From assembly GCA_019428855.1 (NCBI GenBank), contig JAHYJV010000002.1, forward strand, positions 1,917 to 65,916: a stretch of DNA of 64,000 bases, in the 5' to 3' direction. Each line of letters opens with the position of its first letter. Position 1 is the stretch's first letter. The translations under genes and the position numbers were made by a program. This DNA comes from Patescibacteria group bacterium. GTDB taxonomy: Bacteria > Patescibacteriota > Minisyncoccia > JAHIHE01 > JAGLIN01. The notes beneath the pieces are model-generated. The model was given only the letters and a program-made list of their open reading frames with translations, searched no databases and was not told the origin of the DNA. This document shows positions 3,612 through 23,740 of the stretch, piece after piece.

Positions 3612-6600
3612 ATGGAAAAATATAATCACAAAAAAATTGAAAAAAAATGGCAAAATGTTTGGGATGAAAGTGAAATATATCAAGCCAAAGATTCATCAAA
3701 AAAACCGAAATATTATTGTCTGATTGAATTCCCTTATCCATCTGGCGCAGGACTTCATGTGGGACATCTTCGTTCTCATATCGCCATTGATATTGTCGCT
3801 CGCAAAAAAAGAATGGATGGGTTTAATGTGATGTATCCGATTGGATGGGATGCTTTTGGCTTACCAACCGAAAATTTTGCCATCAAAACAAAAACACATC
3901 CAAAAGTTGTAACAAAAAATAATATCAAAAACTATAATCGTCAAATCAAAAGCTATGGCCCAAGTTTTGATTGGTCAAGAGAAATCAATACTACTGACCC
4001 AGAATATTATAAATGGACCCAGTGGATTTTTTTGAAGTTATTTAATAGTTTTTATGATGAAAAGCTAGACAAAGCAAGATTAATTGAAGAACTGAAAGTG
4101 CCAAAGAATTTCAATGAATTTGAAAAAAAAAGATATATTGATAATCACAGACTTGCTTATGAAAAAGAGATGGCGATTAATTGGTGTCCCAGTTGTAAAA
4201 TTGGACTTGCCAACGAAGAAGTTGTCAATGGAAATTGCGAAAGATGTGGTGCCTTGGCCGAGAGAAAAGTGATGAGACAATGGATGCTTCGCATTACAAA
4301 ATATGCCGACCGCTTAATCAAGGATTTGAAGACAGTTGATTATTTGGAAAAAATTAAATCTCAACAAATTAATTGGATTGGAAAATCAGAAGGAGTAACT
4401 ATTAAGTTCAAAGTGAAAAGTGGAAAAATAAAAGATACGAATGACTGCATTGCCACATCGAAAAAAACTCCTCACGATAATAACGAGATTATTGAAGTTT
4501 TCACTACGCGTCCAGACACTTTATTCGGATGCACATATATAGTTCTTTCACCTGAACATCCTTTAATTGAAAAATATAAAAATCAAATAGAAAATTTTAA
4601 GGAGGTTGAAAAATATCAAGATAAAGCTAGCAATAAATCAGATTTGGAAAGAACGGATTTGGCCAAAGAAAAAACAGGAGTGGAACTGAAGGGAATCGAG
4701 GCTATCAATCCAGCAAACAATGAAGAAATTCCCATTTGGATTGCTGATTATGTTCTGGCTTCCTATGGTACTGGTGCGATTATGGCAGTTCCAGCACACG
4801 ATGAAAGAGATTTTGAGTTTGCAGAAAAGTTTGGTATTGCAATTAGGGATGTAGTCGCTCCATTTTTTCAGGCAGATATTGGAAATGAGAACGCCTTACG
4901 ACCTGACAAGAAAACAGTTCGCCGAAGACTAGTTACTGCTTTTGTAAAACATTGGAAAGAAGACAAATATCTTTGTCTTGATTGGAAGAAATTTAAGTGG
5001 CATACCCCAATTATTGGAGGGATTGAAGGGGGAGAAACTCCCGAAGAAGCAGGCTTGCGAGAGATCAGAGAAGAAACTGGTTTTCAAAATATGAAATTTG
5101 TGCATTATCTAGGAGGTGAGCTGCATAATTCTTTTTTTGCTAGACATAAAGATGAAAATCGATATTCAATTGAATATGGAGTATTATTTGAATTGATTGA
5201 TGATAAATGGGAAAAACCAAGTGAAGAAGAAATAAAAAATCATAAAGCTGTTTGGATTAATGCGAAGGAAATGGAAACTTTTTTGAATTTGGAAAGTAAA
5301 AAAATATTATGGCACCGATTGAATGGTAATTTTGAATGTTTTAAAGGAGACGGTGTTAATATAAACTCTGGTTTTTTGGACGGAATGGAAACTATTAAAG
5401 CGAAAAAAGAAATTTCCAATTGGCTCGTAAAAAATAAGCTTGGTCAAAAAGCAGTGAATTTCAAACTTCGCGATTGGATTTTTTCGCGCCAACACTATTG
5501 GGGTGAGCCAATCCCGATTATCAAATGCCGAGAGTGTGGCTTGAAAAAATTAAACATTAAAATGGAATTAAATTTTCGAGTAAATAAAGCTTGGAATCAA
5601 ATAATTGATAATAAAAAAACAATTGAAACTCGAGCACTAAATCCACAAGAAAAAGATAAATTCTTCGGCGATATCAAAGTTGGAGATTTAGTGCGGTTTA
5701 ATAACAAGAATACCCAGGAATTTGAAATTGTCAGAATCAACAAGGTCTATAATTTCAAAAACTTAAGCGAATTATTTGAAACGCAAAAAATAGTTAAAAA
5801 AATATTTACTGATGTAAAAATTAAAAATATATCAGAACTAAAAAAATGCTTTAGCTTTACGGAAGATTATCTAGACCGAATTGAAAAAAATGGTCTAGTT
5901 GGATGGGAATTTGAAAAGATAGACATTACTGAAAATATTTCTCTCTCAGAAAAAGAACTTCCACTGGAACTTCCTAATGTCAAAAATTACGAGCCAACGG
6001 AAACTGGAGAATCGCCACTAGCTAATATAAAAAAATGGGTTGAGATTAAATGTCCAATTTGTGGTGGCAATGCCAAAAGAGAAACAGACACCATGCCAAA
6101 TTGGGCTGGTTCAAGCTGGTATTTTTTGAGATACACAGATCCTGATAATTCAAAAGAATTTGCTTCACAAAAAAATTTACAGCAATGGATGCCAGTTGAT
6201 TTATATAACGGCGGAATGGAACATACCACTCTTCATCTTCTCTATTCTCGATTTTGGCATAAATTTTTATTTGACCTTGAATTTGTCCAGACTTCAGAGC
6301 CATATAAAATGCGTCGCTCGCACGGAATGGTTTTGGCAGAAGATGGTCAGAAGATGAGCAAATCGCGAGGAAACGTCGTCAATCCTGATGAAGTTATTGG
6401 CGAATATGGAGCAGACACTGTTAGATTATATGAAATGTTTATGGGTCCTTATAGCGATGCTATTCCCTGGAACACAACCAGTTTAATTGGTATGAATCGA
6501 TTTTTGCAAAGGATTTGGAATCTACAATCGAAAATTTCAAATACCAAATTACCAAAAAAAGAAACAATTCTGATTGCGACAAATAATCCCGGAAAATTAA

Positions 6601-7610
6601 AAGAACTAAAAAGACATTTTAAAAATTTCCAGATTATTTCTTTAAATGATATTGATAAATCTATTGAAGAACCAGAAGAAAATGAAAAAACATTTGCAGA
6701 TAATTCACTTCTCAAAGCAAGATATTATGCCCAGAAAACAGGCTATCTGACAGTTGCAGATGATAGTGGACTTTGCGTTAATGCACTTGATGGAAGACCA
6801 GGAGTCTTTTCAAGTCGCTATGCTGAGGGTAATGACAAGAAAGGTTGCGTAAAGCTTTTGAAAGAGTTGGAAGGTCTTTCCGACCGATCAGCACACTTTG
6901 AAGCTGTAGTGACGATATATGACTCCAAAAAGGATGAATATCATCAATTTGAGGGTCAGTGTGACGGTGAAATTTTAAGAAAATTCGAGGGAGATAGTGG
7001 GTTTGGATATGATCCAATTTTTATGCCAAATGGTTTTGCAAAATCCTTCGGGCAGTGTTCCATTGAGGAGAAATATTTATTTGATCACAGACAAAAAGCT
7101 ACAAAAAAACTAATCGCTTATCTTGAGAATAATTCGAATAATGATGAAAATAAAATCGAATCATTAATCCACAAAACCATCAAAAAAGTTTCAGAAGATA
7201 TTGATAACTTGAAGTTCAACACTGCCATTTCTCAACTAATGATTTTGGCTAATGAAATAGAAAAAGAAGATAAAATATCATCGGCCAACTTTAAAATATT
7301 TTTGAATTTGCTGTCCCCTTTTGTTCCGCACATCACGGAAGAAATCTGGAAAAATCTAGATGAGAGGCAAAGCATTCACTTGCAGACTTGGCCACAATTC
7401 AATCCACAATTTATCAAAGATACAGAAATAAATTTCGTCATTCAAATCAACGGAAAACTTCGCGATCAAATCATAGTCCCCACTGATATCTCAAAAGAAG
7501 AAGCAAAAAAACTCGCTCTGGAAAGCGAGAAAGTTCAAAAATGGGTTGCAGGAAAGGAAATTAGAAAAGTGTTTTTTGTGAAAGGGAGACTGGTTAATAT
7601 AGTTATCTAA
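3612..7610 (+). CDS. leuS: leucyl-tRNA synthetase with three nested extra domains (1332 aa)
   Basis: All LeuRS landmarks are present and in order: HIGH-type 'HVGH', Zn knuckle 'CPSCK...CERCG', CP1 editing motif 'TTRPDTLFG', 'AVPAHDERDFEFA', 'RDWIFSRQHYWGEPIP', 'KMSKSRGN', and anticodon-binding 'FNTAISQLM'. One uninterrupted frame. Confidence 0.95.
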   Translation: MEKYNHKKIEKKWQNVWDESEIYQAKDSSKKPKYYCLIEFPYPSGAGLHVGHLRSHIAIDIVARKKRMDGFNVMYPIGWDAFGLPTENFAIKTKTHPKVVTKNNIKNYNRQIKSYGPSFDWSREINTTDPEYYKWTQWIFLKLFNSFYDEKLDKARLIEELKVPKNFNEFEKKRYIDNHRLAYEKEMAINWCPSCKIGLANEEVVNGNCERCGALAERKVMRQWMLRITKYADRLIKDLKTVDYLEKIKSQQINWIGKSEGVTIKFKVKSGKIKDTNDCIATSKKTPHDNNEIIEVFTTRPDTLFGCTYIVLSPEHPLIEKYKNQIENFKEVEKYQDKASNKSDLERTDLAKEKTGVELKGIEAINPANNEEIPIWIADYVLASYGTGAIMAVPAHDERDFEFAEKFGIAIRDVVAPFFQADIGNENALRPDKKTVRRRLVTAFVKHWKEDKYLCLDWKKFKWHTPIIGGIEGGETPEEAGLREIREETGFQNMKFVHYLGGELHNSFFARHKDENRYSIEYGVLFELIDDKWEKPSEEEIKNHKAVWINAKEMETFLNLESKKILWHRLNGNFECFKGDGVNINSGFLDGMETIKAKKEISNWLVKNKLGQKAVNFKLRDWIFSRQHYWGEPIPIIKCRECGLKKLNIKMELNFRVNKAWNQIIDNKKTIETRALNPQEKDKFFGDIKVGDLVRFNNKNTQEFEIVRINKVYNFKNLSELFETQKIVKKIFTDVKIKNISELKKCFSFTEDYLDRIEKNGLVGWEFEKIDITENISLSEKELPLELPNVKNYEPTETGESPLANIKKWVEIKCPICGGNAKRETDTMPNWAGSSWYFLRYTDPDNSKEFASQKNLQQWMPVDLYNGGMEHTTLHLLYSRFWHKFLFDLEFVQTSEPYKMRRSHGMVLAEDGQKMSKSRGNVVNPDEVIGEYGADTVRLYEMFMGPYSDAIPWNTTSLIGMNRFLQRIWNLQSKISNTKLPKKETILIATNNPGKLKELKRHFKNFQIISLNDIDKSIEEPEENEKTFADNSLLKARYYAQKTGYLTVADDSGLCVNALDGRPGVFSSRYAEGNDKKGCVKLLKELEGLSDRSAHFEAVVTIYDSKKDEYHQFEGQCDGEILRKFEGDSGFGYDPIFMPNGFAKSFGQCSIEEKYLFDHRQKATKKLIAYLENNSNNDENKIESLIHKTIKKVSEDIDNLKFNTAISQLMILANEIEKEDKISSANFKIFLNLLSPFVPHITEEIWKNLDERQSIHLQTWPQFNPQFIKDTEINFVIQINGKLRDQIIVPTDISKEEAKKLALESEKVQKWVAGKEIRKVFFVKGRLVNIVI
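4854..5342 (+). other. Nudix hydrolase domain inserted in LeuRS (about aa 415-577)
   Basis: Perfect Nudix box GX5EX7REUXEEXGU: 'GGIEGGETPEEAGLREIREETGF' (aa 469-491, nt 5016-5084). It lies between 'ERDFEFAEKFGIAIRDV' and 'GVNINSGFLDG', which are contiguous in ordinary bacterial LeuRS. Confidence 0.8.
5541..5927 (+). other. ASCH/PUA-like domain inserted in LeuRS (about aa 644-772)
   Basis: 'WNQIIDNKKTIETRALNPQEKDKFFGDIKVGDLVRFNN...EFEIVRINKV' matches the ASCH pattern (G-K-K-T-hEhR ... hKhGD). It lies between 'GEPIPIIKCRECG' and 'ELPLELPNV'. Assigned by motif recall; weaker than the other two. Confidence 0.5.
6561..7127 (+). other. RdgB/Ham1 (ITPase) domain inserted in LeuRS (about aa 984-1172)
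   Basis: 'ILIATNNPGKLKEL', 'EENEKTFADNSLLKARYYA', 'VADDSGLCVNALDGRPGVFSSRYA', 'GFGYDPIF' and 'FDHRQKA' align along the whole length with E. coli RdgB motifs (ATGNxGKxxE, ExGxTFxENAxxKA, ADDSGLxVxxLxGxPGxYSARY, GFGYDPxF, SHRxxA). Confidence 0.85.
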
Positions 7611-7636
7611 ATATTAAAATATAATTTACACAAAAT

Positions 7637-7669
7637 AAAATCGAGGATTAAATAATCTTCGATTTTATT
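7637..7669 (+). terminator. intrinsic terminator after leuS
   Basis: aaaatcgagga (7637-7647) pairs with tcttcgatttt (7656-7666), with one G.U, followed by ATT. Confidence 0.55.
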
Positions 7670-7824
7670 GATATCTATAAGTTACGAATATCACCCTAAA
7701 GCAAAAAAATCAAATCCTATAATTAAAATAGATGAGTTAAATTATGAAATTCAATCACCTACTAGCTCTAGAATGAAAGTTATTTTTCGCGTTTTGTAAT
7801 TCAAACATACCTCACTACATATTA

Positions 7825-7852
7825 ATAAAAAACAAGGCAGTTAATTTCCTTG
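7825..7852 (-). terminator. intrinsic terminator of the 348-aa/62-aa cassette
   Basis: Minus strand reads CAAGG-AAATTAACTG-CCTTG followed by TTTTTTATT. The stem overlaps the stop codon of the 62-aa gene. Confidence 0.6.
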
Positions 7853-8029
7853 CTTTAATGTATCTTTAATTTTACTAGATGCACTATTATAAGTTGTTCG
7901 ACAGTCCACGCAAACCTGCAAATGAACTTGAAATGCTTCAACCGAAAAAGGATATAGAACTTCATCTTTTTGCATTTTTTTTATTAGTTCTCTTACCTTT
8001 TTGCAGCTTATCTTTTTATTTATTTCCAT
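7841..8029 (-). CDS. stand-alone zf-HC2 (anti-sigma-type zinc finger) small protein, 62 aa
   Basis: 'SCKKVRELI...(21 aa)...HLQVCVDCR' follows the C-x2-V-x-E-L ... H-L-x2-C-x2-C pattern of the anti-sigma-factor N-terminal zinc finger. No TM segment. Lies 53 nt downstream of the 348-aa gene on the same strand. Confidence 0.5.
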   Translation of the reverse strand: MEINKKISCKKVRELIKKMQKDEVLYPFSVEAFQVHLQVCVDCRTTYNSASSKIKDTLKQGN

Positions 8030-8082
8030 TTTTTTCTCCTACTTTTACTTGTAAATACATTTTACCATTTTTACTGTTTTTG

Positions 8083-9129
8083 TCAATACTTACGAAATTT
8101 TACTGAAAATTGCTTAAAGAATTGATCTTTTATAATCTCATGAGCTTCTCCACTTTTATCTAAAAGGTTGATTTTTGTCCTTCTCCTTTTTTGCTTTCCT
8201 GTTCTATAAGAAGCCTCTCCGTCTGGAATTATTACAAACAAACCTTCATCATATTTATCTAAAGCCTTAATTTTAAATTCTTCTAATTCAGAAACAACTT
8301 TTTCCTCAAAAAATGAAGGAATCTTATTTCCATCTGACTCCAAGAACTTCTGATTTTCACTTTTTTTTACATAAGTAATTAAGTTTTTACATACAAAATC
8401 AGCTGTACTAGAATCATATCTTCTGGTTTTAACCTGGCATGGTATTTTAGATATATTATTTCCTACGGTTACAATTATAAAAAAGTCAATTTTTTCATCA
8501 ACATCTTCCTCTGCTGTAGATGATTCAATCCTAAAACTGTCAACTTTTGATAATTGAGTAATATTATTTAACCCTTCTATAAGACTTTCTGCTGCCAATT
8601 GACCACAAATACCTCGTTTGTTTGCCTTATATGATAAATCATATTTATCCCCTTTCTCTTTCAATAATTCAAAATATTCCTGATTATTACTATATTGTTT
8701 TTCTAAATCGTTCCAAATATTATTTATTGCTATAATTTTATCTTTCTCAGGTAAATTATTATCGTTTTTTATAGATTTAATTATATTTGTAATTTTATCC
8801 ATCCAAATTGCATCTTCTATCGCAAGCTCTCTTAAAATCTTAAAATCCTTTCCTTCCTTTCCTTTCTCTATTTTAAGCCTTGTGAAATTTCTTTGCATAT
8901 TAGCCCGTACTCCTAACATGGCATCTAAAATAATAATATCTTTTTCTTCTTTTATTCCCAACTTTTCAATTATTTTTTCAGTTATTTGTTCCAAATTATC
9001 AGACTTTATCTCTGGACATAATTCTAATTCAGCTTTAATTCCTTCATAAATAGCATCATCAACGATTTCATGATTTCCTTCTGTTTCCAATGAAATATCG
9101 ATTGTAGGCGGTATATCAAATTTTTGCAT
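8083..9129 (-). CDS. hypothetical protein with C-terminal PD-(D/E)xK-like motif set
   Basis: 348 aa, clean ORF. The N-terminal ~170 aa are helical with no recognisable motif. The C-terminal half has 'QLAAESL...', 'DEKIDFFIIV' and, about 10 aa later, 'PCQVKT', an E...D...(Q/E)xK arrangement like restriction-endonuclease-fold nucleases. Inference only. Confidence 0.4.
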   Translation of the reverse strand: MQKFDIPPTIDISLETEGNHEIVDDAIYEGIKAELELCPEIKSDNLEQITEKIIEKLGIKEEKDIIILDAMLGVRANMQRNFTRLKIEKGKEGKDFKILRELAIEDAIWMDKITNIIKSIKNDNNLPEKDKIIAINNIWNDLEKQYSNNQEYFELLKEKGDKYDLSYKANKRGICGQLAAESLIEGLNNITQLSKVDSFRIESSTAEEDVDEKIDFFIIVTVGNNISKIPCQVKTRRYDSSTADFVCKNLITYVKKSENQKFLESDGNKIPSFFEEKVVSELEEFKIKALDKYDEGLFVIIPDGEASYRTGKQKRRRTKINLLDKSGEAHEIIKDQFFKQFSVKFRKY

Positions 9130-9230: not shown

Positions 9231-10502
9231 TTATATTTTCAACATTTTTACAAACTCTCTCTCTTCTTTCCTTTTAAAAGGTCCGACAAGCACCAAATTC
9301 AATTTTTTATTCATGAATATATCCTTTGCCACGCGTTGGATGTCTTCAATTTTCACTTTGTCTAGTAAAGCGAATTTTTCTTCTGGTGTTTGTATATTTT
9401 CTGTTAAAAGCTCTTGGTCGGCAAAATAATTTGCCATCGCTGAAGAAGATTCAAGACGCATAATTGTCCTACTCTTTATTTGATCTTTAACCTTTTTCAA
9501 TTCTTCTTTAGAAACTCCTTTAACGGCAATCTTCTTGTATTCTGTTAATATTACATTAATTGCCTTTTGAACATTTTTTATATCAACCCCAGCCTGAGTG
9601 GTCAAATATCCAGTATCAGTATAAAATTCTGGACTAGAAAAAATATAATAAGCCAAACCTAGTTTTTCTCTGACAGAAATGAAAAGGCGTGAACTCATTC
9701 CTCCGCCGAGAATTACTGAAAGTAAAGTTAGTGCATGCTTATCTGGATGTTTTGTATCATATCCCCTAACTCCGATACTCAAGTGAACTTGATTAGTTTG
9801 CTTGGGATAGATAAGTATTTTTGATTTGCTTTGATTTTCACAAATCTCTATCGCCTTTTCTCTTTTACCTTCTTTAAAATTCTGAAAATATTTTCTTGCC
9901 ATTTTAACAGCTGAATTGCTTTCAATCGCGCCCGCAATAACTAAAGTTGCATTACTTGCTACATAATGATTTCTGAAATAGCTGATTAATTCTTTTCGAT
10001 TTATTGAGTTTACAGTTTCAGGTGTGCCGATAATTTCTCGTCCCATTGGGGTTTTTCCATACAAGAGCGTTTCAAATAAATCAGCCACATATCTCGGTGG
10101 ATCATCTTTAACCATTTTAATCTCTTCCTGAATAGTACCTCTTTCTCTTTCAATCTCTTTTGACAAAAAAAGGGAATTAAAAAGCATATCAGAAATAACA
10201 TCCAAGGCGACATCAAGATGAAAAACTGGAACCTTAACATAAAAACCAGTATATTCTTTTGAAGTAAAAGCATTAAAATCCGCTCCAATCCTTTCTAGTT
10301 CTTCAGAAATCATTAGGGCATTAGGTCTTTTCTTCGTCCCTTTAAAGAATAAATGCTCTAAATAATGTGAAATTCCACTAATTTTTTCCGTTTCAAACCG
10401 AGAACCTGTTCCGACAAGAACAAGAACTGTCACAGTTTTTGTTCCTTCCATTGGCACAGTAATAATTCTTAGGCCATTTGAGAGTTTGTTTTTCTTGAAC
10501 AT
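9231..10502 (-). CDS. M16-family (insulinase/pitrilysin-like) zinc peptidase
   Basis: 423 aa. Inverted zinc motif 'HYLEHLFFKGT' (HxxEH) and a downstream 'E...E' region. Confidence 0.9.
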   Translation of the reverse strand: MFKKNKLSNGLRIITVPMEGTKTVTVLVLVGTGSRFETEKISGISHYLEHLFFKGTKKRPNALMISEELERIGADFNAFTSKEYTGFYVKVPVFHLDVALDVISDMLFNSLFLSKEIERERGTIQEEIKMVKDDPPRYVADLFETLLYGKTPMGREIIGTPETVNSINRKELISYFRNHYVASNATLVIAGAIESNSAVKMARKYFQNFKEGKREKAIEICENQSKSKILIYPKQTNQVHLSIGVRGYDTKHPDKHALTLLSVILGGGMSSRLFISVREKLGLAYYIFSSPEFYTDTGYLTTQAGVDIKNVQKAINVILTEYKKIAVKGVSKEELKKVKDQIKSRTIMRLESSSAMANYFADQELLTENIQTPEEKFALLDKVKIEDIQRVAKDIFMNKKLNLVLVGPFKRKEEREFVKMLKI

Positions 10503-16041: not shown

Positions 16042-16161
16042 TCTCCGGCGATGACCTACTCTCCCAACCCCGTACGGGGCAAGTACCATCAGCGCTAATG
16101 AGCTTAACTTCTGAGTTCGGAATGGTATCAGGTGTAACATCACCGCTAAAATCACCAGAGA
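16042..16161 (-). rRNA. rrf: 5S rRNA
   Basis: Reverse complement contains 'CCTGATACCATTCCGAACTCAGAAGTTAAGC' and 'GGGAGAGTAGGTCATCGCCGGAGA'. The terminal helix pairs UCUCUGGUGAU with AUCGCCGGAGA. Confidence 0.9.
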
Positions 16162-16317
16162 ATTTGTATACTAAATTATAATAGTGTATATAAAATTTTC
16201 AATATGTCAAATATAAAATTTTTTACATTCAATTGAATTATATAAATAGTTTTACAAACATTAAATGCCAGTTAATCCTTTTATTGCATTTTAATTTAAA
16301 AATGCAATTACATTAAA

Positions 16318-19375
<3,058 letters not shown>

Positions 19376-19683
19376 TAATGTAAGATTAACTAGCAATTAA
19401 AATTTGCAATTTAATATTTTATAATATTTTTTACCTATTTATATATATTCAATTGTCAATGATCATTCAAATCTTATATCTTCCGTTCATCTTCTAAATA
19501 TTAGAAAATGAATTAAAACTATAATTTTAAAAAATAAAACCGCCTTGTTCAGAGGCGATTTTAATCTTGTGATAATCACAAAATTAACCGCCATTTAATC
19601 ACTTAAATTCAATTCCATTTTTTTCATAACTTTATATTATGAATTAATGATTTTGCAAAATTAAAACTAAACATTACTTACAT

Positions 19684-19711
19684 AGAATAGCACAACTAAT
19701 AATACTGTCAA
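19684..19711 (-). promoter_or_regulatory. candidate promoter of the 23S-5S unit (TTGACA-16-TATTCT)
   Basis: Reverse complement of tgtcaa (19706-19711) and agaata (19684-19689). Same architecture and the same GTGCTATT -10 context as the 16S P2 promoter. Confidence 0.5.
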
Positions 19712-19782
19712 GTCTTAATTAATAATGCTTAAAACATAGAAAAAAAATTATTTTTTCAAGGAAGATTATACCTATTTATTGC

Positions 19783-19821
19783 TAAAATAAAAGAAGATAG
19801 ATAAGATTGATCTATCTTCTT
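19783..19821 (-). terminator. intrinsic terminator after the 227-aa membrane-protein gene
   Basis: Perfect 12-bp stem aagaagatagat (19791-19802) / atctatcttctt (19810-19821), followed on the minus strand by TTATTTTA. Confidence 0.7.
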
Positions 19822-19857
19822 TTTAGTGCTGTTAGACAAGTATTGAACAACAAGTTT

Positions 19858-20541
19858 CTATTTTAACTTATCTTTCAATTCATCCAGTAGTTCTTTCGCA
19901 TGGTATTGTCCACCCAATCCAAATGCAAGTCCTCCTGCAATGGCAAGCATTAAAGATAAACCACCTGCAAAAATCTTAATAATTTCCATACCAATTTGAA
20001 TTTGCTCCAGTACAACTAAGAATGTAAATATAATAATCGTCCACTTAAATAAAAATGCAACCAAATGATACATTCGAATTCCACTAGCTTTTGCCAGACC
20101 GTCTGTTGATTCGTACACAAGTTGAGAAATAATAACACCAATTGTCAAGCTAATAATCGCTAGAAATAAACTAGGTAGATAACTTAATATTTGTGCTAGA
20201 AATTCCGATACTTGTGGGATATCCATTATATCTACTACAAACTTTAAAGTAAATATCAGAATAAACCATTTAACCAACCAGCCTACGAGTTTCGAAATCG
20301 AAAAATTTATATTAATTCTTTTAAAACATTTTTTTATCCCAGCTTTTTCCAGCGATTTATCAATACTCATTTTTTCAAAAAGAATTTTTGTTAATTTTTC
20401 AAGTTCAACTGCAAACATCAAACCAATGAAGAAAACAAAGACTGCCGAAAAGATAGAACCCTCTATAAGAAATGCTTGATAAAAATTATAGATCGAACTT
20501 GGAATCTCGTAATAAACATCTGTAAATAAATTATATTGCAT
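19858..20541 (-). CDS. multi-pass membrane protein with repeated TM-helix motifs (MscS-associated 'conserved TM helix'-like)
   Basis: 227 aa, at least 4 TM segments with a repeated pattern, and a C-terminal 'GLGGQYHAKELLDELK'. The functional call is tentative. Confidence 0.6.
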   Translation of the reverse strand: MQYNLFTDVYYEIPSSIYNFYQAFLIEGSIFSAVFVFFIGLMFAVELEKLTKILFEKMSIDKSLEKAGIKKCFKRININFSISKLVGWLVKWFILIFTLKFVVDIMDIPQVSEFLAQILSYLPSLFLAIISLTIGVIISQLVYESTDGLAKASGIRMYHLVAFLFKWTIIIFTFLVVLEQIQIGMEIIKIFAGGLSLMLAIAGGLAFGLGGQYHAKELLDELKDKLK

Positions 20542-20785
20542 TTATAACACCCCCTTTCTTTTTATTTTTTTAATTAAATGTTATTAATTTTTTAAGAAAT
20601 TTATGAAAAAATATTATCTAAAATTGTTTTTATGTCTATGATAATATTATAACACATATTAATTATACTGCAATTTTATTTCGCAAGTTCTATATTGATT
20701 TTAAAATTATATTTTTTAGAAATAAAATCTTAGAAAGTTATCTCTGAGATTTTATTTGTGAACATTAAATTTTGGTGGTGTTTGT

Positions 20786-21191
20786 TTGAAAAAGTCAGAA
20801 CTCATTTTGAACAAAATACAGATTATGCTTGTTCAGAATAGAAAACCCCGCAAAAAGCGAGGGGCAAAAAATTTTCAATATTTAGGTTTTGCTACTTGTG
20901 GGATTTGTGGCTATGCCATAACCGCCGAAAGACATATTAAAAAAAGTGGTTTGAAATTTGTTTATTATTATTGCAACCACAAAAGCAAAACTGTTGCTCG
21001 CACTGAAAATTGTTTTTTTGCGGGAAGAAGCTTTAACCGAACAAGTAAAAAACCTTTGTCAAAAAGTTTCTTTGCCTGATGAGTGGTGGAAAAGAAAACA
21101 ATTGAGGAAAAATTATCGGATTTTGAACGAAAAGGTAATCATTGGCTCGAACTCATGCGAAACTGAATTATTGAAGCCAACCAAGCCGTAA
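20786..21191 (+). pseudogene. frameshifted fragment of a large serine recombinase (zinc-ribbon region only)
   Basis: Frame A: 'FATCGICGYAITAERHIKKSGLKFVYYYCNHKSK', the recombinase Zn-ribbon pattern CGxCG...YYxC. It continues only in another frame as 'FLREEALTEQVKNLCQKVSLPDEW'. The N-terminal resolvase catalytic domain is absent. Confidence 0.6.
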
Positions 21192-21199
21192 ATCTCTAT

Positions 21200-21239
21200 A
21201 AACAAGAAAATCCCTCAAGGATGAGAGATTTTCTTGTTT
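21200..21239 (-). terminator. hairpin downstream of tRNA-Ala (candidate terminator)
   Basis: aaacaagaaaatc (21200-21212) pairs with gattttcttgttt (21227-21239). The T-rich segment is inside the stem, so strength is uncertain. Confidence 0.35.
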
Positions 21240-21367
21240 CCATCGGCTCGAACCGTAGAATTTTGGCGGGAATTATTTCGGCGGAATTCAAAACCCCCTG
21301 GAATTTCTTGGAGAAAACCAATGCCGAGGGGCGAAGCCCCGAGGCAACTTCTTTAACAAATTCGGAC

Positions 21368-21444
21368 TGGTGGACCCAACAGGATTCGAACCTGCGACCC
21401 CCTGCTTGCAAAGCAGGTGCTCTAGCCAACTGAGCTATGGGCCC
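21368..21444 (-). tRNA. tRNA-Ala (UGC), CCA encoded
   Basis: Reverse complement GGGCCCATAGCTCAGTTGGCTAGAGCACCTGCTTTGCAAGCAGGGGGTCGCAGGTTCGAATCCTGTTGGGTCCACCA. Cloverleaf fits, with anticodon loop TTTGCAA. Confidence 0.95.
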
Positions 21445-21555
21445 ATAATTTTTTTCGTTTTATATAATAATATTTGAACATCTTATACTGCTTGATTATT
21501 ATATCAAAATCAACTGTATTCGACTATATCTTAAATATATAAAAGCTAAAACGAG

Positions 21556-21629
21556 TGGGCGTACCTGGACTCGAACCAGGGACCTTTACATTATCAGTGT
21601 AACGCTCTAACCAGCTGAGCTATACGCCC
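21556..21629 (-). tRNA. tRNA-Ile (GAU)
   Basis: Reverse complement GGGCGTATAGCTCAGCTGGTTAGAGCGTTACACTGATAATGTAAAGGTCCCTGGTTCGAGTCCAGGTACGCCCA. Anticodon loop CTGATAA. No encoded CCA. Confidence 0.95.
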
Positions 21630-21954: not shown

Positions 21955-23421
<1,467 letters not shown>

Positions 23422-23636
23422 AATGATAATCTATTCATTGAAGAATAATTTATCTCAAAATATAATAAAGCATAATCAATGGACATAAAAATGTCAATGT
23501 AATTATGCATAAAAGTTTTATCTTGGAATTGTCTATAACCGGATAAGTTTATAGACTCGCAGGACAACTGCACAAAGTTTATATAATTGTGTGTGATTTA
23601 TATTTAATTGTTAATGAACAATTTAATTACTAAGTC

Positions 23637-23664
23637 ATAATAGCACAAACAAAACACGTGTCAA
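23637..23664 (-). promoter_or_regulatory. candidate 16S promoter P2 (TTGACA-16-TATTAT)
   Basis: Reverse complement of tgtcaa (23659-23664) and ataata (23637-23642). The -10 context GTGCTATTAT parallels the 23S promoter GTGCTATTCT. Confidence 0.5.
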
Positions 23665-23740
23665 GCCTTTTGAAAACTTAACAAAATACTTCTGATTTCT
23701 GTATTTAATTTTTGTGATTTTTATTAATAACCTTATTTAT

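Follow-up and report, generated by a model that had tools for sequence, protein, structure and literature searches.

In a stretch of 64,000 nucleotides from a Patescibacteria group bacterium (contig JAHYJV010000002.1; the whole stretch is called here the window), the genes for 16S and 23S ribosomal RNA (rRNA) are separated by two transfer RNA (tRNA) genes, the remains of a gene for a large serine recombinase (LSR) and an intact gene for a membrane protein of 227 amino acids (aa). We consider, with a probability of roughly 85%, that this region is a layered structure, in which an ancestral layout received a small LSR-bearing element that subsequently decayed, and not one single decayed element. 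What carries this reading is the gene order, the boundaries of the insertion, the homology to intact elements, an empty site, synteny and the conservation of a promoter sequence, all of which are observed. The interruption of about 2 kb between tRNA-Ala and 23S is then mostly ancestral, because relatives without the element have the membrane-protein gene in that place, and 595 bp alone were inserted. The original prediction, a reading of the window made from its letters, had taken the whole ~2 kb for an insertion; of this the 595 bp stand and the rest does not, and for the membrane-protein gene the outcome is the one that the prediction itself had named as speaking for an ancestral architecture, namely the same gene in the spacer of related genomes.

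The rRNA locus is made up of the following genes:

21957-23423, minus strand: 16S rRNA gene (Rfam RF00177, 1467 bits)
21555-21629, minus strand: tRNA-Ile(GAU) (ARAGORN and Rfam)
21368-21444, minus strand: tRNA-Ala(UGC) (ARAGORN), whose 3′ CCACCA is the core of the attachment site (junction comparison)
16313-19376, minus strand: 23S rRNA gene (Rfam)
16043-16159, minus strand: 5S rRNA gene, then a terminator hairpin (Rfam)

Rfam and ARAGORN thus confirm the order first described, that is, 16S, tRNA-Ile, tRNA-Ala, a gap of 1,991 bp (19377-21367), 23S and 5S. The 16S-23S spacer measures 2,580 bp and contains the tRNAs, a protein gene and the relic of the element, which is not the form of a canonical linked operon, with a spacer of at most 1,500 bp that holds tRNAs only (the 1,500-bp limit between linked and unlinked genes is taken from 10.1101/705046). 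Misassembly of the region was considered and judged unlikely, as the synteny of both flanks is that of the related loci L001 and L003 (loci are given here by such labels) and the edges of the relic fall exactly on the attachment (att) core.

The recombinase relic and the edges of the insertion

Between tRNA-Ala and the membrane-protein gene, the parts of the element that can still be recognized are:

20795-21373, plus strand: LSR pseudogene (tblastn with the intact LSR of L099; six-frame reading; homologs P0121-P0136)
21368-21373, plus strand: core copy 1, TGGTGG, the attR-like junction between arm B and tRNA-Ala (conservation in 56 aligned members; junction comparison)
21250-21367, plus strand: arm B of the element, the P arm of attP (blastn to L006, L007, L008 and L099 at 86-95%)
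20779-20817, plus strand: remnant of arm A, the P′ arm, TGTTTGTTTGAAAAAGTCAGAACTCATTTTG... (blastn to arm A of L009, L006, L007 and L099; junction alignment)
20773-20778, plus strand: core copy 2, TGGTGG, the attL-like junction at the distal edge of the insertion (intact elements; empty site of L010)
21200-21239, no strand assigned: 18-bp hairpin in the 3′ coding region of the LSR (-24.1 kcal/mol, z -6.3)

The TGGTGG core is the reverse complement of the 3′ CCACCA of tRNA-Ala, and the same core is found at the distal end of the intact elements of L009, L124, L130, L097 and L128. The foreign DNA, bounded by the core, amounts to 595 bp (20773-21367). Removal of positions 20779-21373, likewise 595 bp, restores the site, in such a way that the window reads GGGTCCACCA joined to AAATTTAATGTTCAC... 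and then the hairpin, which matches the empty site of L010, where GGGTCCAC is joined to ATAATAAAATTTCAGAAC... and then the hairpin. These boundaries come from the comparison of the att arms and from L010, a closer relative, the spacers between tRNA-Ala and the gene in L001 and L003 being too diverged for the MAFFT alignment. The features of an integrative element are found together: attL and attR junctions, a contiguous attP at other loci, an empty attB (L010), and the core at both ends of intact copies. The comparison of spacers that had been proposed as a check has yielded both the boundaries and the att-like repeats, in the form of 6-bp TGGTGG repeats and the empty site in L010, and the claim that an element with a serine recombinase integrated at tRNA-Ala and decayed is borne out by the junctions, by that empty site and by the homology to L099.

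Two recombinase-like open reading frames (ORFs) are present on the plus strand, at 20786-21079 and 20958-21191, and the closest relative of the relic is the element of L099, whose LSR gene (5311-6813) encodes a protein of 501 aa with Resolvase, Recombinase and Zn_ribbon_recom domains. The relic aligns to this protein at 81% and 88% aa identity (tblastn, E 3e-60) and to the intact L099 element at 88-95% DNA identity, and from its 81-88% identity to an LSR of three domains the descent of the fragment is clear. In the numbering of L099, what has been retained is aa 247-320, followed, after a frameshift near 21016, by aa 320-343, and finally by aa 405-501; the lesions are this one frameshift, a deletion of 61 codons (aa 344-404) and a Trp codon turned into TGA at 21164-21166. 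Missing from the window are the ~246 N-terminal codons, which code for the catalytic domain and for the greater part of the recombinase domain, and PF00239, the resolvase catalytic domain, which L099 matches with E 4.5e-20, is absent from it, as had been noticed at the outset. Because that domain is absent and the homology starts at about residue 247 of 501, the copy in the window is a pseudogene fragment and not a functional LSR.

Taken alone, the fragment gives weak profile matches, to Zn_ribbon_recom (PF13408) with E 4.8e-4 and 20.9 bits, below the Pfam cut-off of 25.3, and to XisF with E 2.3e-5, while PF07508 (Recombinase) went undetected in the window by Pfam and the coiled-coil region (aa 344-404) has been deleted; it is the identity to the intact LSR, rather than the profile check suggested with the original prediction, that upholds the assignment. 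With the frame-corrected fragment as query only short proteins were retrieved, and P0133 and P0134 among them indicate that the reading frame continues in a third frame to the end of tRNA-Ala, so that the pseudogene does not stop at 21191, as had been stated, but runs on to 21373, at the CCA end of that gene. Arm B overlaps this C-terminal coding region and holds a GC-rich hairpin (21324-21342), and the remnant of arm A, of about 40 nt, has been joined by deletion to codon ~250 of the LSR.

The hairpin at 21200-21239 is a property of the LSR family and not a feature of the host spacer. In the alignment of 56 sequences 81% of its cells are paired, whereas shuffles reach 71% and slid controls no more than 60%, and two-sided changes occur in 13 of the 18 pairs (columns 83-98, for example, have U-A in 37 of the sequences and C-G in another 18); the signal comes largely from two clades and hence represents few independent events. 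The 595-bp relic itself is inert, a biologically ordinary pseudogene remnant.

The membrane-protein gene upstream of 23S and the predicted transcription units

The other occupant of the gap is the following gene:

19858-20541, minus strand: membrane-protein gene, 227 aa, intact, with two PF05552 helices (Pfam, NCBIfam, PDB profile, synteny)

It starts 232 bp past the distal boundary of the insertion. L001 (protein 64% identical) and L003 (61%), both on long contigs, have the order of the window, with NusA, DHH, trigger factor, ClpP, 16S, tRNA-Ile, tRNA-Ala, 230-250 bp, the membrane-protein gene, 0.6-0.9 kb, 23S and 5S, and L010 (61%) has a matching order of rRNA genes with 307 bp from tRNA-Ala to the membrane-protein gene. 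At the rRNA locus of these three, where the gene is present, no recombinase DNA is found. A scan of one genome per species for homologs of the gene gave 80 loci, of which 70 were informative once the rRNA and tRNA genes had been placed by blastn and ARAGORN, and in 29 of the 70, all from Patescibacteria, 23S lies directly downstream on the same strand, mostly after a gap of 280-900 nt; these linked loci include Kaiser-, Yonath-, Adler-, Azam-, Giovannoni-, Taylor- and Moranbacteria, Spechtbacterales and others. The linkage of the gene to 23S is thus old and widespread, and not universal.

The ORF is intact, as first described, and its product matches PF05552 (Pfam, E 2.8e-9). It is 100% identical to an NCBI protein assigned to 'Patescibacteria group bacterium', and it has 567 homologs, nearly all of 222-230 aa, those with a named source all being from Patescibacteria. 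The profile of the family aligns to residues 24-115 of MscS (the transmembrane helices TM1-TM3a; PDB profile match, E 7e-8), the match to the NCBIfam msc model reaches 50 bits against a cut-off of 100, and the protein contains a Gly/Ala-rich helix, GGLAFGLGG, and ends about 20 residues past the TM3a-like helix. It shares with MscS this TM1-TM3a-like part, PF05552, whereas it lacks the beta and alpha-beta cytoplasmic domains by which MscS channels are defined, and the Pfam, NCBIfam and PDB profile searches reported no family corresponding to the MscS cytoplasmic domain. Of the pore-lining TM3 and the cytoplasmic beta-domain vestibule that together make a channel of the MscS family, only the transmembrane part is therefore present, and the protein is a candidate channel.

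The signals that would divide the locus into transcription units are these:

23637-23665, minus strand: 16S promoter-like site, CTTGACA-N16-TATTAT with TGTGC upstream of the -10 (read from the sequence)
23601-23619, minus strand: boxA-like motif GTTCATTAACAATTAAATA in the 16S leader, with 3 mismatches to the 23S-proximal copy
20704-20773, minus strand: ancestral terminator-like hairpin, after tRNA-Ala before the insertion (fold z -4.1; L010 homolog)
19783-19821, minus strand: predicted intrinsic terminator of the membrane-protein gene, a 14-bp stem and UUUUAUUUU (-15.1 kcal/mol, z -4.2)
19684-19712, minus strand: predicted 23S promoter, CTTGACA-N16-TATTCT with TGTGC upstream of the -10 (sequence; conservation)
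19535-19563, minus strand: hairpin and U-run in the 23S leader (z -4.9; conserved in L010, L001 and L003)
19446-19464, minus strand: boxA-like motif GATCATTGACAATTGAATA, ~70 nt before 23S (conserved in L010, L001 and L003)

The three signals described in the original prediction, the hairpin at 21200-21239, the terminator at 19783-19821 and the TTGACA-16-TATTCT promoter at 19684-19711, are all present. The 23S-proximal promoter, CTTGACAGTATTATTAGTTGTGCTATTCT, is unique in the window and shares its -35 element, its spacing and its TGTGCTATT -10 region with the 16S site, CTTGACACGTGTTTTGTTTGTGCTATTAT. MAFFT places it in aligned register in L010 and L003; in L001 it is not placed in register, and a matching motif was read by eye in other columns. 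The boxA-like motif precedes both 16S and 23S; by chance alone one would expect 0.06 matches. In the empty site of L010 a hairpin, CTCAGAGAATTATCTCTGAG, followed by T7, comes directly after tRNA-Ala and is homologous to 20704-20773 of the window, and the relatives also carry a hairpin at the position of the terminator of the membrane-protein gene. A search of 19350-21400 with Rfam at a permissive threshold gave matches at the level of chance only (miRNA models on the hairpin, and others), and no family for the 23S leader or the hairpins.

All this suggests a second rRNA-type promoter at 19684-19712 with terminators in between, as against a single promoter upstream of 16S for all the rRNAs, and we think that 16S with the tRNAs, the membrane-protein gene, and 23S with 5S would be separate transcription units that predate the insertion. 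The division into units was not caused by the insertion, because the 23S promoter and the terminators after the tRNA and after the gene occur in relatives that are free of it; of the earlier claim that the element had split the operon, what survives is that 23S very probably has its own promoter. Also on the minus strand, a segment of about 150 nt (19535-19680) is conserved with L010, L001 and L003; it extends from the 23S promoter to the hairpin with the U-run, contains a TCATAAT...ATTATGA inverted repeat, and could be a leader, an attenuator or a small RNA.

The islet family and its tRNA-Ala target

A 500-aa consensus built from the related loci was used to scan metagenome contigs, in which at least 575 relatives of the LSR are found, the best 80 of them being nearly all full-length and uninterrupted, with 72-95% identity. 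The target was counted in 62 loci with at least 80 nt after the LSR gene. In 48 of these the gene overlaps or abuts a convergent tRNA-Ala: in 44 the frame overlaps the 3′ end of the tRNA by 3-5 nt (16 with anticodon CGC, 15 with UGC and 13 with GGC), and in 4 more the tRNA follows after a short gap. In 3 of the 62 the frame overlaps tRNA-Val(CAC), and among the remaining loci those inspected have some tRNA 3′ fragments and some an arm A after the LSR. At the 3′ end of the LSR, in 56 aligned sequences, the terminal GTGG of the core hexamer is invariant and the two preceding bases are nearly so. An attP of the family has the form ...CAAATCAAATT TGGTGG TGTTTGTTTGAAAAAG.... The contiguous junction of arm B, TGGTGG and arm A is found in L006, L007, L098 and L103, and such junctions downstream of some LSR genes could be either tandem arrays or excised circles; among 50 loci comprising whole contigs no terminal overlaps indicative of a free circular form were found. 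Integration and excision by the LSRs of this family are predicted activities.

The tRNA-Ala of the rRNA operon is a site that the family has hit repeatedly, since in L009, L124, L130 and L143 copies of 5-7 kb lie between tRNA-Ala(UGC) and the membrane-protein gene inside rRNA operons; L009 has a frameshifted LSR, and the other three a full-length one. In L124 (3600-3660) and L143 (5500-5570) a further GC-rich segment resembling arm B stands left of the distal core of the intact element and indicates tandem accretion or older relics at the rRNA-operon site.

The cargo is small (2-4.6 kb) and variable, and in the annotated loci it often consists of restriction-modification genes. L124 has a HinP1I-type restriction-modification system together with Vsr, L097 an N6/N4 methylase and a partner ORF, L009 a LexA-methylase fusion and an Endonuclease-VII-like protein, and L007 an Eco57I-like protein. 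In L006, L007 and L009 a gene for a helix-turn-helix regulator adjoins the recombinase gene on the opposite strand. No phage genes were seen in the elements, and an origin as prophages was rejected, the scan of viral contigs having given just two partial N-terminal matches.

The intact elements have a common layout: host, core, A, cargo, inverted A′, core′, inverted B′, LSR gene, B, core and tRNA-Ala. A full inverted copy of attP thus sits just upstream of the LSR promoter in every intact element (L097, L116, L124, L128, L130, L143, L009 and most of L090-L169), and one pair of inverted repeats encloses the cargo and another the LSR gene, as in L130 (2719-2925 with 7563-7769, and 7875-7944 with 9316-9385). 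The A/A′ repeats are of 95-207 nt and 87-100% complementary, and the B/B′ repeats are often identical at 110 of 110 positions, although the elements differ from one another by 5-25%; they would therefore be homogenized within each element. Because of these inverted repeats many contigs break off 180-450 nt short of the LSR gene, on its upstream side, and it is the A/A′ and B/B′ repeats that make contig L099 palindromic. In L094 (~150-1970) the LSR module lies between a tRNA-Ala(CGC) upstream on the same strand and a convergent tRNA-Ala(UGC) downstream, as would be expected if the internal attP copy had recombined with another tRNA-Ala gene; this hints at a chromosomal rearrangement mediated by the element. 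Invertible cargo was also considered and found no support, as all matches are co-oriented relative to the LSR in the 9 comparable pairs of loci, a small sample. The relic in the window has lost the inverted part entirely.

Alternative explanations and comparison with known systems

If the layered reading is accepted, three consecutive units on the same strand would have been the starting point: (i) a promoter, boxA, 16S, tRNA-Ile, tRNA-Ala and a terminator; (ii) the gene resembling the transmembrane part of MscS, with its own ribosome-binding site and terminator; and (iii) a second rRNA-type promoter, a leader, boxA, 23S, 5S and a terminator. Recombination between the attP of a small LSR islet (arm B, TGGTGG, arm A) and the CCACCA at the 3′ end of tRNA-Ala would then have set the LSR gene directly against the tRNA, in convergent orientation. 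Such insertions, even those of 6 kb, would have been tolerated because the site was already between a terminator and the next promoter, so that the expression of the rRNAs was undisturbed. The probable order of decay is that a deletion between arm A and LSR codon ~250, possibly by way of a microhomology of ~13 nt, took out the cargo together with the internal inverted attP and the LSR's 5′ half, after which a second deletion, of 61 codons, the frameshift and the stop codon would have completed the inactivation.

The idea that a single decayed integrative element accounts for the entire ~2 kb, with the membrane-protein gene as its surviving cargo, which was that of the original prediction, now seems hardly credible. 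The gene does adjoin the recombinase fragment, it has its own terminator, and the intact elements carry variable cargo on that side; but it is not cargo, because it lies outside the core-repeat boundary (20773-20778) and L001, L003 and L010 have it at the matching site with no element DNA, and moreover in L009, L124, L130 and L143 it stands beyond the distal end of complete elements, and it is the gene that precedes 23S in the 29 linked loci. It is also very unlikely that the relic has been co-opted, so that the GC-rich hairpin of arm B and the 18-bp hairpin would act as terminator or insulator of the 16S-tRNA unit and be kept by selection. When the minus strand is read, a T-rich run comes after the hairpin at 21324-21342, as in a terminator, and the 18-bp hairpin, which covaries across the family, is fully paired on that strand if G-U is allowed; yet the ancestral terminator hairpin (20704-20773) is still there just beyond the relic, the hairpins belong to the intact mobile element and not to the host, and the decay, by stop codon, frameshift and deletions, is of the ordinary kind.

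A third possibility, also unlikely, is that the membrane-protein gene is transcribed within the rRNA operon, either by read-through from the 16S promoter or together with 23S, and that the linkage serves the co-regulation of a channel-like protein with ribosome synthesis. Its adjacency to 23S on the same strand is conserved across distant Patescibacteria and boxA-like antitermination motifs are present, but terminator hairpins on both sides of the gene and the rRNA-type promoter before 23S, in the window as well as in relatives, argue against it, as do the 41 of the 70 informative loci in which the linkage is absent. The layered structure has in its turn to face several observations that weigh against it. 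In those same 41 loci, which include Uhr-, Peregrini-, Doudna- and Woesebacteria, there is no 23S within 2.5 kb of the gene, and either the linkage is restricted to certain lineages or some of the loci are paralogs. The closest homolog seen on another contig (L004, 854-1537, 81% identical) has a NUDIX gene (8-430) upstream and not tRNA-Ala, and the 16S side of the arrangement thus differs even between close relatives. The conserved terminator-like hairpin at 19535-19563 falls between the proposed 23S promoter and 23S, and the functions of promoters and terminators have been assigned from sequence and conservation only.

A wider proposal, which we advance tentatively and with rather more doubt than conviction, is that the relic derives from a very abundant and apparently undescribed family of LSR islets of Patescibacteria, for which the CCACCA end of any tRNA-Ala, that of the rRNA operon included, would be attB, and which would have a fixed layout of two modules (core, A, cargo, A′, core′, B′, LSR, B, core) with a full inverted copy of attP, its arms up to 100% identical to the outer ones and perhaps active in recombination (L094); and, separately, that a minimal MscS-like gene would be a conserved fixture upstream of 23S in many Patescibacteria, which hints at a functional or regulatory tie. 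This context, of islets with an internal inverted att and of a membrane-protein gene linked to 23S, is more interesting than the relic, and as far as we found it is undescribed in the literature searched; for the conserved gene upstream of 23S no description was found in those searches, nor in the searched passages of 10.1101/705046.

The consequences are of several kinds. In annotating the rRNA loci of Patescibacteria, what is native (the membrane-protein gene and the split promoters) can be told apart from what is foreign (the LSR DNA). These rRNA regions are notoriously odd and break assemblies, and at the loci studied here many contigs end because perfect inverted repeats of 110-200 bp adjoin the LSR gene. 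The serine integrases of this large family have a target that is simple, universal and predictable, the 3′ end of tRNA-Ala, and could furnish genetic tools both for organisms that have almost none at present and for integrase engineering in general, and the linkage of the gene to 23S, with its duplicated rRNA promoter, offers a concrete case in which to consider how unlinked rRNA genes are expressed and coordinated.

Other observations concern the rRNA genes and the rest of the window, whose G+C is ~31%. The flanks of 23S, TTGCTAGTTAATCTTACATTAAA on the 5′ side and TTTAATGTAA...GGATTAACTGGCA on the 3′ side, can pair, giving a local processing stem. In relatives the rRNA region is interrupted in other ways too: the 23S gene of L001 (9310-13574) spans 4,265 nt with ORFs inside, in L009 a group II intron domain and a LAGLIDADG ORF separate 16S from tRNA-Ile (9326-9913), and the 16S matches of L129, L130 and L131 stretch over ~2.4 kb. 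On the plus strand of the window an ORF of 1,332 aa (3612-7610) encodes a leucyl-tRNA synthetase with inserted NUDIX (aa 462-561) and Ham1/ITPase-like (aa 986-1169) domains, an unusual fusion of nucleotide-sanitizing domains with an aminoacyl-tRNA synthetase. The cumulative GC skew has its maximum at ~7 kb and coincides with a change of coding strand, the genes lying on the plus strand up to 7610 and on the minus strand from 8083 on, the rRNA genes included, and this peak, at ~7000-8100, may mark a replication terminus or origin, or merely a bias of gene strand.

As for known systems, in Rickettsia 16S lies apart from 23S-5S, and a protein gene, fmt, is conserved upstream of 23S. The likeness to the window is that of a particular protein gene conserved immediately upstream of a separately transcribed 23S-5S, in the window a predicted unit; the phylum and the gene are different, fmt as against a membrane protein, and the 16S of the window is just 2.6 kb away. 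Unlinked rRNA genes, with a 16S-23S spacing above 1,500 bp, have been reported to be common in Patescibacteria (Brewer et al., bioRxiv 10.1101/705046), and the window agrees in its host and in its spacer of 2,580 bp; in contrast, its genes are still adjacent and co-oriented, 16S is followed by the usual tRNA-Ile and tRNA-Ala, and the intervening DNA includes one specific conserved protein gene.

For the LSR islets, the nearest described analogue that we found is that of the ssrA-specific genomic islands of Dehalococcoides, mobilized by the large serine recombinase DsiB (PMC3146451). Both are small and non-conjugative, with variable cargo, and target the 3′ end of a tRNA or tRNA-like gene, and in both the integrase gene lies by an att junction, a short direct repeat marks the far edge, and tandem or relic copies occur. 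The target of the Dehalococcoides islands is the transfer-messenger RNA, with a 20-bp repeat, whereas that of the islets is tRNA-Ala of any isoacceptor, occasionally tRNA-Val, with 5-6 bp; the second small recombinase of the former was not seen in the islets, and the internal inverted attP of the latter was not seen described in those parts of the source that were read. With the phage-type serine integrases (phiC31, Bxb1, TP901-1, A118) and the XisF/SpoIVCA excisases, among which XisF gave a weak model match for the fragment in the window, the LSRs share the architecture of Resolvase, Recombinase and zinc-ribbon domains, an attP of imperfect dyad symmetry around a short core and an integrase gene that adjoins it. 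The islets differ from these in that they are of 4-7 kb, carry no phage genes and are essentially absent from the viral contig collection, in that their cargo, in the annotated loci, is often made up of restriction-modification genes, and in that the reading frame of the LSR runs through the P arm into the core.

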